64,000 nt of DNA, from positions 44,071 to 108,070 of the forward strand of contig JABIKK010000013.1 of assembly GCA_018655015.1 (NCBI GenBank). Reading direction: 5' to 3'. The stretch comes from Candidatus Woesearchaeota archaeon (GTDB lineage Archaea > Nanobdellota > Nanobdellia > SCGC-AAA011-G17 > UBA489). Made by a program: the position numbers and the translations under genes. Below the pieces are notes generated by a model. That model saw only the letters and a program-made list of their open reading frames with translations. It was not told where the DNA came from and did no database searches. This document shows positions 4,193 to 14,356 of the stretch, in pieces. How positions within the stretch are numbered: position 1 is the first letter of the stretch; every line of letters begins with the position of its first letter.

Positions 4193-7192
4193 TTAAGTTT
4201 TAACAATCTCCACTTCTAACTTGCCCGATCTAAACATATAAAATAACATCAATGCAAGTATTGCAAGAACCCAACTAAACATACCAAATACAGGACCTTT
4301 AACAGAAGGTTCCAAACTACAATCAACTCTTTCTAATGGATCAACTGAACAAACTCCAGTAATACAAGAGTTACAATTTCTAGTTCTCTCGCCATTCTCA
4401 CAATCAGTCCAAGCTCCACAAACCCATGCGTATCCTCCACCTAAGGAAGAACAGCTTGGTTCTACAACATCAGGATAATTCTTAACATCGCAAATATCAG
4501 CTACACAAGTTCCAAAATCAGGATTACAAGATTCGCCACTAGCACATTGAACTTCATTACTTAATTCATTACAACCATTACCATCATAATCACCACAGAA
4601 AGCAACTCCTACCGAAGTACACACTGCCGTGCCCCTAACACAATAAGAAGAACAACCGTCTCCACTTCCAGAACCACTCATTCCTTCAAACAAACAAGTA
4701 TCAGTACAACCATCACCACTAACAGTGTTTCCATCATCACATTGTTCGCCAGGATCAATATTACTATCTCCACAATAGCTGTCTGTAGCAGTAACAGTTA
4801 ACAAATCACTAGGAGGTGCAATTCCGCCACCAAAGTTATAGCCCTTGGCTCTCCATCTAGCATCATCAGGATCAGGTCCAGGATTATTATTCTCGGAAGT
4901 CCAATTAGTGGTTCCGGAAGTTCCAGAAACAGTTATTGGACTAGGTTTAACAACTGAAAGTTCTTGAGTATCTTCATTGATAACATCAACATCAAAGACC
5001 AGATTATTACATCGATCATCACCATCTAAATCTAAAGTTAAAACAACATTGTCTCCTCTTTCCGCAGTCAAAGTACTCCACTTAAAGCTAGCACCTTGTA
5101 ATGCAAGAGTACATTCAGAGCTACCCCCACCACCTTGATCACCAGTTTCTAAACAAGTATTCCTATCATTTGAATCAATATCACAAGCATTACCACAAGG
5201 ATCTCCAGTAGTTGAACCAGTACTTCCATCTTCATTATCTTGAGAGTTTTCACAATGTTCAACATCATAATCGACACCATTAACATTCACAGATTTACCT
5301 GCACAATCTGCATCATCTACACAAGCATAAGTTGAAACATTTCCTTCTGGATTAGATAAAGTATTAACATCTATACAAGTTCCAAAAGAGCCGTAGTTAG
5401 GTGTAATTGCACAATTATCAAGAGCATCTTCAATTCCATCCCCATCTGTATCAACAAAAGGTTCTATCTTACAGAATTCATCACAGCCATCCCCATTAAT
5501 ATTATTTCCATCATCACATTCTTCCGCACCTTCTTGAACACCGTCACCACATTCTCCAACACTTCCAGGCTCTAAATATTCACAACATAATTTATTGGAA
5601 AAATAACTACAATCTGCAGCATGAACATTATAATTTCCACCGTTTCCATCACCAAAGGAAAGTAAACATTCTTTTGCGCCACAATCAGAACTTCCAGCAA
5701 CTGTGTCACACTGAACTTTATCATAACAAACTTTTTGATAATATCCCTTCGGAGGTAATTCACTATCTGTTGATTCGGGAGCATAAATATGTCCTCCTCC
5801 AATCAAAGTCCCAGTAGCATGACCCTCAGTTCCGTTTCCAGCCAAGGTACTAACATCATTACCATTTGCAACCCTAATTGCATCATTCCAAGAATCCGCA
5901 ATAAATAAATTTCCAAATGCATCTAAATCTACACCTCTAACATGTGAAAATTTAGCACTCAAAAGTGGACCATCAACAAAGCCAGTTGTTCCATCACCTG
6001 CAAAATCACTTATTGTAGATCCAGCAACATCTATTTTCTTTATCTTTTGATTATTAGTATCAGCAACATATAATGAGTCTGAAGCAATATCATAAGTTAA
6101 TGCATAAGGTGCAGTGAAACCCGCTCCATAAACAGAACCGCCAACTCCTCCAGCATAATATGAAACTCCAAAACTGACCATGTCTAAACTCTTAATCCGA
6201 TTATTATCTTTATCTGCAATATAAACTAAATTCTCAGAAGGATTGTAACTAACACCAGTAGGATTGCTAAACTTAGCTTCGGGCCCAATAACTCCAGCCA
6301 AATCACCTTCAACACCACAAGTACCTGCAATTGTTGTAACGGCTCCATCAGCCAAACCGACTTGTCTAATACAGTGATTACCCGTATCTGCAACAATTAA
6401 ATTCCCAGAAGGACCAACCGTAATTCCAGTAGGTTGATTAAATCTAGCAGCGCCAGAAATTCCATCGCTTGTCCCACTTGTACCACAAGCCCCTGCAAAG
6501 GCTCCAGAAACACTCCCATCATTCAAGAACACCCTTCTAATACAATGGTTATCTCTATCTGCAACATAAAAATAATCTCCAACTAAAACATCTCTAACTA
6601 AAACTAATCCTGCAGGATAATTAAACTTAGCAGTTGTAGCTCCACCAGGAGTAGTTCCACTTGTACCACAAGTTCCACTAAAATGTTCGGCCAGACCATT
6701 ACCACCAATCTCCCTTATACAATGACTCATTGCATCCGTAACATAAGCAGTTGTAAAACTATTTGTGTCGACAACCGTTTCAATCCCATTGGGTTCATAA
6801 AATGTTGAAGAAATACTTAACCCATTTGAAATATACGCAATTAAATTAGAATTATCAGCATAGCAACTTCTCGTAGGCCCATCAACTCTTAAACTAAATG
6901 ATAACTCGGCACAATAATCCACACTTTCTCCAGAACCAATCATAGAAATATGAGAATTATTTTTCAAAAATAAACCAACAACATCTTTATCGCCACAAGC
7001 CCCTGCAACACTCTCTTCAACAACCATACCCGTTACACTTCCAGGCCCTAAAGAACTAACAACATCTGCAACAGAAGGAGAACTTAAATCATCAATATTA
7101 AATGCCAGAAATGATGCAAATATAACTAAAAACGCTGGAAATAATATACGATGCTCTTCTCTCATCAAAACAACCTCTTCAATACAATTCAA
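4193..7192 (-). CDS. Large secreted/cell-surface protein with NHL repeats and Cys-rich CxxxCDDGNxxxGDGC repeats, C-terminal TM anchor
   Basis: N-terminal signal peptide. Repeated 'YVADxxNHCIRRV/NHCIRQV' NHL-type beta-propeller blades. Multiple 'CDDGN..GDGC' cysteine-rich repeats. Hydrophobic C-terminal segment (VFGMFSWVLAILALMLFYMF). Promoter-like AACATTTATAAG at 7205-7216 suggests the true start may be M10 (7165). Confidence 0.7.
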   Translation of the reverse strand: MNCIEEVVLMREEHRILFPAFLVIFASFLAFNIDDLSSPSVADVVSSLGPGSVTGMVVEESVAGACGDKDVVGLFLKNNSHISMIGSGESVDYCAELSFSLRVDGPTRSCYADNSNLIAYISNGLSISSTFYEPNGIETVVDTNSFTTAYVTDAMSHCIREIGGNGLAEHFSGTCGTSGTTPGGATTAKFNYPAGLVLVRDVLVGDYFYVADRDNHCIRRVFLNDGSVSGAFAGACGTSGTSDGISGAARFNQPTGITVGPSGNLIVADTGNHCIRQVGLADGAVTTIAGTCGVEGDLAGVIGPEAKFSNPTGVSYNPSENLVYIADKDNNRIKSLDMVSFGVSYYAGGVGGSVYGAGFTAPYALTYDIASDSLYVADTNNQKIKKIDVAGSTISDFAGDGTTGFVDGPLLSAKFSHVRGVDLDAFGNLFIADSWNDAIRVANGNDVSTLAGNGTEGHATGTLIGGGHIYAPESTDSELPPKGYYQKVCYDKVQCDTVAGSSDCGAKECLLSFGDGNGGNYNVHAADCSYFSNKLCCEYLEPGSVGECGDGVQEGAEECDDGNNINGDGCDEFCKIEPFVDTDGDGIEDALDNCAITPNYGSFGTCIDVNTLSNPEGNVSTYACVDDADCAGKSVNVNGVDYDVEHCENSQDNEDGSTGSTTGDPCGNACDIDSNDRNTCLETGDQGGGGSSECTLALQGASFKWSTLTAERGDNVVLTLDLDGDDRCNNLVFDVDVINEDTQELSVVKPSPITVSGTSGTTNWTSENNNPGPDPDDARWRAKGYNFGGGIAPPSDLLTVTATDSYCGDSNIDPGEQCDDGNTVSGDGCTDTCLFEGMSGSGSGDGCSSYCVRGTAVCTSVGVAFCGDYDGNGCNELSNEVQCASGESCNPDFGTCVADICDVKNYPDVVEPSCSSLGGGYAWVCGAWTDCENGERTRNCNSCITGVCSVDPLERVDCSLEPSVKGPVFGMFSWVLAILALMLFYMFRSGKLEVEIVKT

Positions 7193-11254: not shown

Positions 11255-11340
11255 GCGGGGGTCCCATAGTTAGGTCAATTGGACTAGGTTGAGGGCCTAG
11301 TGGCTTAGTGCCTGCGCAGGTTCGAATCCTGTCCTCCGCA
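11255..11340 (+). tRNA. tRNA-Leu (anticodon GAG), type II with long variable arm
   Basis: Manually folded cloverleaf: acceptor GCGGGGG/CCTCCGC, anticodon stem CTAGG/CCTAG with loop TTGAGGG, T-loop TTCGAAT, 15-nt variable arm. Confidence 0.85.
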
Positions 11341-11404
11341 TAAATCATAATAACTTCCAACATAACACAGCCCTCTAATTTAGAATCATGAGTTCAAACA
11401 ACAA

Positions 11405-12208
11405 CTAGATTTTGTAATCGTTAACAGTTTGAACAGGAATAGCAACGCCACGAGAATCAAAAGCTTCCAGATTTTTATCGATATTGTCCATATATCGCTC
11501 CACATAATGGGGAACAAGAATCTGCCTAAGATTACTTGGGGAAAGATTACGCCCCCTACGATCAAAAACGACAGGTACTTTTCTTTCTTCCCTTGGATGC
11601 AGTGCATCTGTCAAGTCTACTCCCAGTATCTGTCCAAGCGCACACGAAAATTTCTTCGATGATGACTTATCTTTAATCCAAAGCTCCATTTCGGATTGCG
11701 TCGGCGAATAATCTGAATCTCCGCTGCACAAATGGGTTTCATACAATGAAATCTTAGCTAGCTCAACTTGATACAAAAGCGTATTACAGAAAACAAAGCC
11801 TAACATTGGTTCACCAAGTAACCCTTCTAATGAACCTAGCTGCTCAATATCCGTTCCACTCCTAGAAGAATTAGAGGGGTGGTTATGCAACATCCCCACT
11901 AGTTGTAAGCCTTGATGTTCCTTTAAGAAATCACGATATTGATCCACAACATTTGGCTGTATAAATTCTCCTTGGCCCGCTATTTGGTCTGGAACATGTA
12001 AGTGAGTCACATTCAAAGATTCAGGTTTATCTGCCATAAGCCAATAGCTCCGCTCAATATGGGGCATAAGTAAATGGAGTGGATGAATTCGTGGGTCGAG
12101 AGCACTATAAAAAAATGGTTTGAGAATCGATTTATCCCCTGCTGACGCTTCAAAAAGGTCCCTTACAGCATTCCGCATTACGTCCTCATTAATTTGAACT
12201 TCTTCCAT
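11405..12208 (-). CDS. Hypothetical protein with JAMM/MPN-like H-x-H-x6-S-x2-D motif (HNHPSNSSRSGTD); GC-richer than surroundings
   Basis: Single 267-aa ORF with ~41 % GC versus ~34 % in the flanks, lying directly 3' of tRNA-Leu(GAG) and upstream of the L18e promoter. The motif resembles deubiquitinase-like metalloproteases of the JAB family. Confidence 0.45.
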   Translation of the reverse strand: MEEVQINEDVMRNAVRDLFEASAGDKSILKPFFYSALDPRIHPLHLLMPHIERSYWLMADKPESLNVTHLHVPDQIAGQGEFIQPNVVDQYRDFLKEHQGLQLVGMLHNHPSNSSRSGTDIEQLGSLEGLLGEPMLGFVFCNTLLYQVELAKISLYETHLCSGDSDYSPTQSEMELWIKDKSSSKKFSCALGQILGVDLTDALHPREERKVPVVFDRRGRNLSPSNLRQILVPHYVERYMDNIDKNLEAFDSRGVAIPVQTVNDYKI

Positions 12209-12388
12209 ATTTCATCTGCCTACAACTCAAAACCCTTTAAAATGCTTAAGTTTAGAGAATTATATACTCCAACATATATTTATAAGTATTACCATCTACA
12301 TGCAATTATTGATGAAATTTTCAATATTATCTATAAAAATTCATGAAAGGCAGAAGAGAAAACCCCCAAGTTCAATCTGACCCACCAG

Positions 12389-12400
12389 AACATTTATAAA
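12389..12400 (+). promoter_or_regulatory. BRE/TATA box (AACATTTATAAA) for L18e-L13-S9-RpoN operon
   Basis: Consensus motif 76 nt upstream of the L18e ATG. Confidence 0.5.
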
Positions 12401-12475
12401 TCGTTAATTCACAAACTAATTACTCTGCAAGCGTAAGCGAACAGTAGAGCACAAACGTGTTCTAAATCAAATAAA

Positions 12476-13891: not shown

Positions 13892-14356
13892 TTAATCTTT
13901 TTTACAATAAACTACATTGGTATACGCAGGATCATGAACTGCCCATGGACCAGATCTCCAAGCCCCATCTGCCGTCCCAACTTCAGAGCTGGATTCGTCC
14001 TTCCATTCTAACTTAATTTTTGCAACCTTAACTGTCCCACTACAACAATCAGCACCAGTGCTATATGTGTGAACTCGGTATTCATTACTTCCTCCCACTA
14101 ATCCAACATTAGCCACATCATCACCACGGGGGAATCTTCCATCTAATTCAGTATACCTCGTCCAACCAGTAGGACAATCCGTATCAAACATAGCAACCAT
14201 CCCTGTAAAAAGTCCATCTAAGCCTTCAATTTGATCAGCAGTATGCCCATAATTATTAACGCCCTGACCTTGTACAAAAACTATAGTTCCAAAGGCTAAC
14301 ACTAAAATGATAAGAAGATACATATGCCTCTTTTGAACTGAAATGTTAATATTCAC
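13892..14356 (-). CDS. Small secreted protein, member 4 (diverged) of the conserved-leader family
   Basis: 'MNINISVQKRHMYLLIILVLAFGTIVFVQGQGVNNYGH' leader homologous to members 1-3, with an unrelated Cys-containing C-terminal domain. Inserted antisense between rpoN and the SprT-like gene. Confidence 0.65.
   Translation of the reverse strand: MNINISVQKRHMYLLIILVLAFGTIVFVQGQGVNNYGHTADQIEGLDGLFTGMVAMFDTDCPTGWTRYTELDGRFPRGDDVANVGLVGGSNEYRVHTYSTGADCCSGTVKVAKIKLEWKDESSSEVGTADGAWRSGPWAVHDPAYTNVVYCKKD

Follow-up and report, generated by a model that had tools for sequence, protein, structure and literature searches.

In the DNA analysed here, a 64-kb stretch that belongs to an uncultured Woesearchaeota archaeon and that we call the window, the spacer between tRNA-Leu(GAG) and the ribosomal protein gene L18e is an insertion hot spot, and it holds a horizontally acquired, lineage-specific accessory islet. 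The islet is a fairly ordinary accessory-gene islet of 1,042 nt with one gene, whose 267-aa product is an orphan with motif-level similarity to JAMM/MPN+ enzymes and is probably a divergent JAMM-like metallopeptidase. We put the probability of the whole explanation, a lineage-specific islet at the tRNA-Leu/L18e hot spot that carries an orphan gene for a very divergent JAMM/MPN+ protein, at roughly 0.6.

An accessory islet between tRNA-Leu(GAG) and L18e

The features of the locus, in window coordinates, are as follows.

11255-11340, plus strand: tRNA-Leu(GAG) (ARAGORN; Rfam RF00005 tRNA, 45.4 bits), complete; its variable arm is long and the gene does not encode the CCA end
11330-11340, plus strand: candidate att core TGTCCTCCGCA, the final 11 nt of the tRNA, recurring outside the tRNA only in the relative's locus L012
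11341-11362, minus strand: left-edge remnant of a TrmB-like gene, its final 5 codons and stop (CWKLL*); L012 shares 11341-11360 without a mismatch
11342-12383, no strand: the whole inserted DNA, bounded by alignment with the empty sites of L002 and L003
11405-12208, minus strand: sole gene of the insert, encoding the 267-aa orphan protein; residues ~60-140 are JAMM/MPN+-like and ~160-267 are of another type
11849-11887, minus strand: codons for HNHPSNSSRSGTD, the putative zinc site (H108, H110, S117, D120; residues 108-120), aligned with HxH...S..D in STAMBP, 2kcq and Prok-JAB and in the JAB end of Cap2_3
12209-12327, minus strand: AT-rich region upstream of the gene, its presumed promoter, with TATA-like boxes read from the sequence
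12328-12399, plus strand: pseudogene remnant at the right edge, comprising ~23 codons from the 3′ end of a gene for a 147-aa membrane protein, located by tblastn with the L012 protein
12384-12475, plus strand: conserved L18e promoter (TATA at 12393-12399) and structured 5′ leader (12422-12464), outside the insert

The insert starts 2 nt past the 3′ end of the tRNA and stops short of the L18e-L13-S9-RpoN operon, whose conserved promoter and leader follow it; S13-S4-S11-RpoD lies upstream. The minus-strand gene is the only long ORF of the spacer. A tRNA-Leu occupies the equivalent position in six of seven relatives, over an RpoD identity range of 44-89%, and is the conserved anchor of the hot spot. 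The L18e promoter and leader are conserved in L002, L003, L004, L007 and 8 metagenome contigs, and the leader folds into two hairpins (-13.4 kcal/mol, z = -2.4). A sequence-only reading of this DNA had proposed a GC-rich insertion at 11341-12475, directly 3′ of the tRNA and splitting two ribosomal operons. The insertion is real, but its bounds are narrower, because 12384-12475 is the L18e promoter and leader that all relatives possess. The tRNA and L18e each keep a separate conserved promoter and, consequently, no operon was broken by the insert.

Close relatives lack the inserted DNA. The sites of L002 (RpoD 89% identical) and L003 (83%) are empty and uninterrupted, with 94-100 nt between tRNA and L18e and the same clean junction, CCGCAT-ACCA(G/T)AAC. 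Two other loci, L004 and L012, carry unrelated cargo at the same nucleotide position (within 1 nt): L004 has ORFs of 119 and 89 aa, and the filling of L012 measures 2,682 nt and consists of two tandem inserts. Because different cargo has entered at one position, the site is an insertion hot spot. The flanks of empty L003 and filled L012 are 97.5-99.6% identical, and the two states are therefore a polymorphism within a species. The window's insert shares no sequence with that of L004 and is similar to that of L012 at the edges only. Across the relatives, the cargo at the site comprises toxin-antitoxin, regulator and small membrane-protein genes, which form no recognised defence system; the L004 and L012 inserts contain no recombinase gene, and the relatives' cargo proteins had no match in the IMG/VR, phage and plasmid collections.

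The composition of the islet is atypical in one respect and ordinary in another. The 267-aa ORF has a GC content of 41.0%, compared with 34.0% for the window, and is the highest-GC 804-nt stretch of the 64 kb; only 0.2% of sliding windows equal it, all of them overlapping the ORF region. Its GC3 (0.343; mean 0.253, sd 0.037) and its GC1 (0.556) are both the highest among 67 genes. However, the insert is host-like in its strand-symmetric di-, tri- and tetranucleotide signatures (z from -0.25 to +0.5), so that the atypical composition first suggested for the gene holds for GC, GC1 and GC3 and does not extend to the oligonucleotide signatures.

Older cargo and probable integration at the tRNA 3′ end

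Both edges of the insert contain remnants of older genes. The five codons and stop at the left edge correspond to the end of a 240-aa ORF of L012, which finishes in ...LWKLL* and matches Pfam TrmB at 3.5e-15. At the right edge, the 147-aa protein of L012 gave its best tblastn match in the window at the expected place (52% identity over 23 aa, E = 0.027). The translation of this second remnant, YL*KFMKGRRENPQVQSDPPEHL*, includes an in-frame stop and extends into the L18e TATA box, and DNA homology of the window to L012 restarts at 12367.

In the sister locus L012, the final 11 nt of the tRNA (TGTCCTCCGCA) also recur without a mismatch between the two tandem inserts. After this internal 11-mer come the 20 nt that the window has directly behind its tRNA, and window positions 11330-11360 match the L012 internal junction exactly (31/31 nt). 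Such a repeat is the signature of integration into the tRNA. Within the window, the 21-nt tRNA 3′ end has no other copy with up to 3 mismatches, and the best gapped match to it at the right edge of the insert is not significant (P about 0.06-0.11). A candidate degenerate attR at that edge, GTTCAATCTGACCC, is similar to the T-arm and acceptor end of the tRNA at this same P of 0.06-0.11; the stretch is better read as what is left of the 147-aa gene's coding sequence at its 3′ end. The window's insert encodes no integrase or recombinase, its one ORF having no recombinase match. The search for a direct repeat of the tRNA 3′ end near the distal boundary thus returned nothing significant in the window. 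The earlier proposal of tRNA-targeted integration is indirectly supported: it is favoured by the location at the tRNA 3′ end, the empty sites of relatives and the repeat in L012, and the window's own insert, with neither repeat nor integrase, speaks against it.

These observations suggest a sequence of events. Site-specific recombination at the tRNA 3′ end, with TGTCCTCCGCA as its core, probably serves the hot spot, as inferred from L012. Earlier cargo at the site was a TrmB-like regulator gene and the gene for the 147-aa membrane protein. In the window's lineage, this cargo was then replaced by foreign DNA, about 970 nt long and slightly richer in GC, so that a 20-nt and a ~70-nt stub are left. 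The islet now seems immobile, with no integrase and no intact distal repeat, and it is fixed in a population that is close to clonal.

SSV-, pNOB8- and TKV-type elements are tRNA-targeted integrative elements of archaea. The PYG1 island of Pyrococcus yayanosii is flanked by 44-bp tRNA-derived repeats (PMC9897764). Like such elements, the islet sits at a tRNA 3′ end and is present in some and absent from other closely related genomes, and part of the tRNA 3′ end recurs as a direct repeat, although in the sister locus L012. Unlike them, the units here are tiny (0.7-1.4 kb) and the inserts examined have no recombinase gene; the repeat is only 11 nt long, and at its distal end the window's insert has either none or a degenerate one; and cargo was replaced inside older remnants, in contrast to the clean arrival of an element. 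The islet may also be compared with archaeal ‘dark matter’ islands, which are clusters of narrowly spread, fast-evolving genes, many of them from integrated mobile elements (PMC4158269). It shares with these an orphan gene of atypical GC in a strain-variable spot, where relatives have toxin-antitoxin, regulator and small membrane-protein genes. It differs in being a single-gene islet, lodged between two of the genome's most conserved operons, and in having no viral or plasmid hallmark gene.

The orphan gene and its JAMM-like motif

The JGI, ENA and Logan gene callers all report a protein of 267 aa, whereas NCBI reports 210 aa, starting from M58. The 57 codons upstream of M58 are all open (P about 0.03), and the calculated chance probability of 267 sense codons at 41% GC is about 5e-8 per frame position. 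The codon positions of the ORF show GC1>GC2~GC3. Gene calls on 12 contigs, drawn from several sample sets, gave the identical protein, at this locus in each case; these contigs are 99.9-100% identical and their ORF is without any SNP, as in a clonal population. Minus-strand TATA-like boxes lie about 30 nt (ATTTTAAAGG) and about 55 nt (GTATATAAT) before the ATG, and the upstream AT-rich region is presumed to be the gene's own promoter.

The protein is an orphan. Among 5.8e9 clustered sequences (word-indexed search) and 1.84e9 representative proteins (exhaustive HMMER search), it found only itself as a homologue. The one other match was to a 670-aa repeat protein, P0002 (E = 1e-4), with which residues 159-187 have a 29-residue motif in common; the repeats of P0002 resemble HTH_3 below threshold only, and the match was therefore uninformative. 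Searches of the IMG/VR, phage and plasmid collections with the 267-aa protein gave no match, and neither did PADLOC or PHROGs.

The similarity to JAMM/MPN+ proteins is centred on one motif. The JAB/MPN-type metal motif noticed at the outset, HNHPSNSSRSGTD, is present and in register with JAMM references, but all its scores lie below curated cut-offs and are confined to the motif region, and its loop has six residues. It reads HxH-x6-S-x2-D, one residue short of the canonical JAMM HxH-x7-S-x2-D, and HMMER places a gap there in every alignment. The full 267-aa protein has no Pfam match. Fragments of it match Pfam Prok-JAB at E = 0.08-0.12 (12.7-13.3 bits against a cut-off of 25), and the JAB end of NCBIfam NF058523 Cap2_3 is matched at E = 0.035 (12.6 bits against a cut-off of 320). 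In PDB, phmmer found STAMBP (E = 0.025), the 2kcq MPN domain (E = 0.034) and AMSH-LP (E = 0.2). Comparison by hhalign with two JAMM alignments gave P = 5e-4 and 7e-4 with probabilities of 26-30%, and local HMMs of two JAMM families scored 11.9 and 12.5 bits (per-sequence E of 1.6-1.8e-5) where the best of 5,000 shuffles reached 7.2 bits; the profile that retrieved the alignments behind both tests had the motif segment of the query itself built into it, which introduces a mild selection bias. No profile for JAMM/MPN+ (PF01398/PF14464) reached its curated gathering score, while phmmer, hhalign and the local HMMs compared with shuffles detect similarity to family members beyond chance, with that same retrieval by the query motif applying to the hhalign and HMM alignments. 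Up to E = 10, neither Pfam nor NCBIfam gave a match to RadC (Pfam PF04002; context HNHPSG...PS..D), which appeared (2qlc) only among the matches of a circular structure model, and a motif scan found no second JAMM gene in the window or in the relatives' loci.

Around the motif, the segment QGLxLVGxLHNHPS...S-x-x-D is in register with the strand and helix that bind zinc in eukaryotic AMSH/STAMBP and AMSH-LP (PDB 3rzu, 9le4, 2znr), in Rpn11 and in the prokaryotic Prok-JAB proteins (PF14464, e.g. 2kcq), and the strand LNVTHLHVPDQ matches LNVTHVIVPKQ of AMSH-like proteins. The profile alignments are limited to residues ~63-135 and stop short of the catalytic Glu, which in the family lies about 50-60 residues upstream of HxH in an ExCGxLxG context. 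A candidate for it is E52 (IERSYWLMA), which lies 56 residues upstream of HxH, an AMSH-like distance; the spacing of IE(52)...LNVTH...HNHP is within one residue of the AMSH-like IETCG...LNVTH...HTHP. MAFFT instead pairs H42 with the catalytic Glu. If the protein starts at M58, E52 is absent, and the NCBI annotation would thus remove the probable catalytic Glu. Compared with JAMM/MPN+ isopeptidases, the protein has an HxH-to-Ser loop one residue shorter, ~25 extra residues in its N-terminal part and an unrelated C-terminal extension of ~110 residues; it has no MIT, Rpn8-type or Ubl partner context, falls below all curated thresholds and has no detectable relatives. A single-sequence AlphaFold (AF2) model was unusable (pLDDT 35.6). 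With a JAMM-seeded alignment the pLDDT was 54 and the top PDB matches were all JAMM proteins (Rpn11, RadC, AMSH; E about 1e-3, TM 0.4), a result that is circular and counts as no more than consistent with the fold.

The protein core (residues ~50-140) most likely adopts a very divergent JAMM/MPN+ fold, in which H108, H110 and D120 would bind zinc, S117 would be the motif serine and E52 would be the likely general base. The C-terminal part of ~110 residues presumably selects a substrate or partner, and the most likely activity would be that of a stand-alone zinc (iso)peptidase.

Alternative explanations

The resemblance to HNHPS...S..D may be coincidental, in which case the product would be an orphan of another fold or a fast-evolving non-enzyme. 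We judge this unlikely. Five independent JAMM-type references (STAMBP, AMSH-LP, 2kcq, Pfam Prok-JAB and NCBIfam Cap2_3) fall on the same residues in register, the shuffles give an empirical P < 2e-4 with per-sequence E about 1e-5 for two JAMM families, and the surroundings of the motif fit, with a strand before HxH, a helix after S..D and a hydrophobic strand, MLGFVFC, matching AIAIVCAP or YVIVSV. Coincidence would be in keeping with matches that all remain below cut-off and within about 30-70 residues around one motif, with hhalign probabilities of only 26-30%, with the non-canonical x6 spacing, with an uninformative single-sequence model and with an orphan that offers no homologues to test the motif's conservation. 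It is very improbable that the ORF is not a functional gene, whether as a chance ORF or as freshly acquired, unexpressed DNA. Such a reading could appeal to the missing homologues, to the 12 contigs without polymorphism that might show selection and to the disagreement between NCBI and the other gene callers over the start codon, but an 804-nt ORF in DNA of 34-41% GC is far beyond chance, its codon-position GC pattern is coding-like, TATA-like boxes precede it and there is statistical support for its resemblance, at the motif, to a real enzyme family. That the gene is ancestral at the locus and was deleted from the relatives is hardly credible. The window and the more distant L012 lineage do share remnants of the TrmB-like and 147-aa genes, and some filling of the spacer could be old; the JAMM-like gene, however, lies between the stubs of those older genes and so arrived after them, occurs in no other lineage in the sequence collections searched and is an outlier in GC, GC1 and GC3, while L002 and L003 share one clean empty junction and L003 and L012 show empty and filled states alternating within one species.

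The sequence-only reading suggested that the lone JAB-like gene could be what decay had left of a defence or conjugation module. On this view, the larger defence system would have been CBASS Cap3-like, Bil or 6A-MBL-like, or else the gene would stem from a RadC-like conjugation or anti-restriction module, with decay following integration; the proposal is unsupported and weakly refuted, and we consider it distinctly improbable. The gene weakly matches the JAB end of the Cap2_3 anti-phage protein, its HNHPS resembles the RadC-type HNHPSG, the islet does contain decayed gene fragments and, as is often the case for defence genes, it lies in a variable islet. Yet the insert has space for one gene only, and this gene is intact; the fragments beside it trace back to TrmB-like regulator and membrane-protein genes, and none to an E1, E2, Ubl, cyclase or conjugation gene; and PADLOC, PHROGs and Pfam RadC are all without a match. 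The anti-phage Ubl-conjugation JABs (CBASS Cap3/Cap2_3 fusions, Bil, 6A-MBL) differ from this stand-alone gene, since no E1, E2, Ubl or cyclase gene is found in the insert or among the annotated neighbours within ~10 kb; these neighbours are ribosomal proteins, RNA polymerase subunits, Rpr2, SprT-like, ELP3 and similar. The cargo of the relatives points the same way, as it forms no recognised defence system. A bolder extension would make the tRNA-Leu(GAG)/L18e spacer a cassette-exchange site, where promoter-bearing units of 0.7-1.4 kb without a recombinase would be inserted, stacked and swapped, integron-like, on the 11-nt tRNA core by a recombinase encoded elsewhere; the JAMM-like orphan would be one cassette, founding a stand-alone JAMM subfamily with an x6 zinc loop and perhaps anti-viral or anti-defence in role. 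We regard this extension as improbable.

For the preferred reading, an ordinary accessory islet with a divergent JAMM-like gene, the value is mostly descriptive, and the current understanding of tRNA-linked islands and of JAMM enzymes is unchanged. If the protein proves active as a JAMM enzyme, with its zinc loop shortened and its C-terminal domain new, the range of sequences known for the fold would become wider. In these DPANN archaea, small foreign genes have landed repeatedly in a spacer enclosed by two of the most conserved gene clusters of archaea, and this spacer offers a compact, well-anchored place for watching gene turnover in otherwise streamlined genomes.

Filling of the tRNA-Leu/L18e spacer

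In the window, which belongs to an uncultured Candidatus Woesearchaeota archaeon, tRNA-Leu(GAG) follows S13, S4, S11 and RpoD and precedes L18e, L13, S9 and RpoN, and the 1,135 nt between the tRNA and L18e contain one long ORF, the JAMM-like gene. Across 12.5 kb, the window shows 100% identity to a public MAG contig, JABINI010000007.1. The features of the spacer are as follows.

11255-11340, tRNA-Leu(GAG)
11341-11362, remnant of a TrmB-like gene (last five codons and stop)
11405-12208, minus strand, JAMM-like ORF, 267 aa, with HNHPSNSSRSGTD at residues 108-120
12328-12399, remnant of a 147-aa gene (last ~23 codons, in-frame stop acquired; tblastn E = 0.027, at the expected place)
12393-12399, L18e TATA box, conserved in all relatives
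12422-12464, L18e 5′ leader, conserved in all relatives

Related loci, given L-numbers here, were gathered in two ways, via RpoD and via the conserved L18e leader motif. A sequence-only reading had proposed a comparison with relatives lacking the insert, and such relatives exist: in L002 and L003 (RpoD 89 and 83% identical), the tRNA and L18e are only 94-100 nt apart, with the junction ...CCTCCGCA-T-ACCA(G/T)AACATTTATAA.... Alignment with these loci places the extra DNA of the window at exactly 11342-12383 (1,042 nt), which upholds the insertion first drawn at 11341-12475 but shortens it, as 12384 onward is conserved in relatives. A promoter-like block upstream of tRNA-Leu is also conserved; with the tRNA and L18e promoters both kept, the insert sits between transcription units and breaks none.

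At the same position, L004 (79%) carries a different 0.7-kb insert (4909-5626), a third, unrelated filling whose two minus-strand ORFs (119 and 89 aa) are orphans, without a family match except a sub-threshold Hikeshi-like C-terminal one. The filling of L012 is 2,682 nt long, and its right edge is also seen in L014. Flanks of the empty L003 and the filled L012/L014 are 97.5-99.6% identical; consequently, filled and empty alleles coexist in one species. The tRNA-Leu/L18e spacer is an insertion hot spot. None of the inserts examined, including those of L004 and L012, encodes a recombinase or matches a defence system.

The composition of the insert is unusual in one respect and ordinary in another. 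The JAMM-like ORF has a GC content of 41.0%, compared with 34.0% for the window and unmatched by any other 804-nt stretch in the 64 kb, and its GC3 (0.343) and GC1 (0.556) rank top among 67 genes. The GC-rich, lone-gene insertion with its motif is therefore confirmed, but the proposed tetranucleotide comparison gave a host-like result: strand-symmetric di-, tri- and tetranucleotide signatures are ordinary (z from -0.25 to +0.5).

L002, the closest relative, has a ParE toxin and small antitoxin pair (4854-5326) inserted on the opposite flank of tRNA-Leu, between its promoter and RpoD; the window lacks this pair. In a sister clade (L007, L009, L013 and L015; RpoD ~71% identical), no tRNA-Leu separates RpoD from L18e, with the leader conserved; L010, L011 and L016 place a 91-aa membrane-protein gene between leader and L18e, and in L016 RpoD does not precede the operon. 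L18e-L13-S9-RpoN is preceded by a strongly conserved TATA box and a ~45-nt leader, ACTCTGCAAGCGTAAGCGAACAGTAGAGCACAAACGTGTTCTA (window 12393-12464; also L002, L003, L004, L007 and L009-L016). The leader has two predicted hairpins (-13.4 kcal/mol, z = -2.4), of which the second keeps its stem while its loop differs (AAAC, ATAC, TATAT). The leader has no match in Rfam and may be a ribosomal-protein autoregulatory leader. Directly after RpoN, a conserved minus-strand ORF (13892-14356; 154 aa, hydrophobic N-terminal segment, no Pfam match) recurs in L002-L004 and L014 at 60-80% identity, and a second ORF ~10 kb away (L001, 11984-12106) has an N-terminus in common with it (56% over 41 aa).

Cargo turnover behind the tRNA

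In L012 (Ga0233428_1000741), positions 91-2814 hold two tandem units behind tRNA-Leu. Unit 1 contains a SAM-methyltransferase-like gene (200 aa) and a 109-aa orphan ORF. After it, at 1374-1384, the final 11 nt of the tRNA recur exactly (TGTCCTCCGCA); the 160 kb examined contain no second copy of this 11-mer outside tRNA genes. The next 20 nt, TAAATCATAATAACTTCCAA, also trail the tRNA in the window (31/31 match). Integration into a tRNA gene classically leaves a complete tRNA together with a displaced part of its 3′ end (PMC9897764). Consequently, at least one unit probably came by site-specific recombination, for which these 11 nt would be the core. The tRNA-targeted integration suggested from sequence is thus indirectly supported by L012, but in the window insert we found neither a recombinase nor, at the far end where a direct repeat had been expected, a significant tRNA-derived copy. 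A degenerate tRNA-like repeat, suspected at that end, more probably represents what is left of the coding 3′ part of the old 147-aa gene.

Unit 2 of L012 contains a TrmB-like regulator gene (240 aa; Pfam TrmB, 3.5e-15) and a 147-aa membrane-protein gene, of which the window keeps only both ends. Therefore, ~970 nt with the JAMM-like gene and its flanks replaced older cargo in an occupied site. We consider it improbable that the spacer works as an integron-like cassette site whose recombinase gene lies elsewhere.

An orphan protein with JAMM likeness

The ORF is far beyond chance: in such AT-rich DNA, we calculate a probability of ~5e-8 per frame position for 804 nt. Its codon-position GC pattern is coding-like, and TATA-like boxes lie ~30 and ~55 nt before the first ATG. 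Start calls differ, with NCBI (MBT3866143.1, MBT6044532.1) giving 210 aa from M58 and the JGI, ENA and Logan callers giving 267 aa. The 57 codons upstream of M58 are all open, with a calculated chance of ~0.03, which favours the 267-aa form. A GGAG does precede M58, however; the 210-aa form (start region 12035-12208) would lose E52, probably the catalytic Glu, together with the first helix and the first strand. Twelve contigs drawn from several sample sets have the identical protein, each time at the tRNA-Leu/L18e locus. These contigs agree at 99.9-100% of their DNA, with zero SNPs in the ORF, and such a clonal population is uninformative on selection. The sole polymorphisms near the insert are at 11272 (tRNA body, A/C, contig L025) and 12419 (just before the L18e leader, A/G, contigs L019 and L024).

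The protein is an orphan. It matched only itself among 5.8 billion clustered sequences, and only itself in an exhaustive scan of 1.84 billion representatives, bar an uninformative 29-residue motif of a repeat protein. Viral, phage and plasmid collections gave no matches, nor did Pfam, PADLOC and PHROGs with the full-length protein, and residues ~160-267 have no recognisable relative.

Sequence and profile searches return weak, sub-threshold matches that are all JAMM/MPN+ proteins and all on the same residues: STAMBP (PDB, E = 0.025), the Mov34/MPN/PAD-1 structure 2kcq (PDB, E = 0.034), AMSH-LP (PDB, E = 0.2), Pfam Prok-JAB (E = 0.08-0.12) and the JAB end of NCBIfam Cap2_3 (E = 0.035). We aligned Prok-JAB and AMSH-like sets without the query, although their retrieval by a profile including its motif segment introduces a mild selection bias. 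With that bias, hhalign gave P = 5e-4 and 7e-4 (probabilities 30% and 26%), and locally built HMMs scored 11.9 and 12.5 bits (per-sequence E 1.6-1.8e-5), compared with 7.2 bits for the best of 5,000 shuffles and at most 2.7 bits for other window ORFs. The AMSH-like strand LNVTHVIVPKQ is matched by LNVTHLHVPDQ, I51-E52 falls, within one residue, where the Glu of I-E-T-C-G would be expected, and the family's helix and hydrophobic strand (here MLGFVFC) follow the motif.

In contrast, the protein is below every curated family threshold, its HxH-to-Ser loop is one residue shorter, profile alignments end short of the catalytic Glu, and MAFFT pairs the family Glu with H42, not E52. A structure predicted from the single sequence had low confidence (pLDDT 35.6). 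Because the predicted model resembling Rpn11, RadC and AMSH was seeded with JAMM sequences, it is consistent with a JAMM fold and no test of one. The JAB/MPN-like identity first read from the motif is probably right, and we put the probability of a JAMM fold at roughly 0.75-0.8; catalytic competence is considerably less probable.

Origin and possible role

The best-supported reading is that the insert is a single-gene islet that was acquired horizontally and has since become immobile. Acquisition, as first proposed, agrees with its absence from L002/L003, its extreme GC, GC1 and GC3 and the variable site. A decayed defence or conjugation remnant is not supported: the flanking fragments derive from regulator and membrane-protein genes. 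The sequence-only reading had noted no E1, Ub-like or cyclase partner nearby, and neither the insert nor its annotated neighbours within ~10 kb include a gene for a Ubl, E1, E2 or cyclase, leaving a role in a conjugation-type defence system unsupported. The islet's gene would instead encode a JAMM-like zinc (iso)peptidase that is highly divergent and works stand-alone; its C-terminal part may select the substrate, possibly a Ubl or SAMP-like protein of the host whose gene lies elsewhere.

Orphan genes in variable spots of archaeal genomes are a known kind (PMC4158269). tRNA-linked islets and lone JAB proteins are known kinds as well, and the insert is a further member. What is notable is the islet's position between two core operons, the signs that very small units lacking a recombinase gene have been stacked and replaced, and the extreme divergence of the 267-aa protein.
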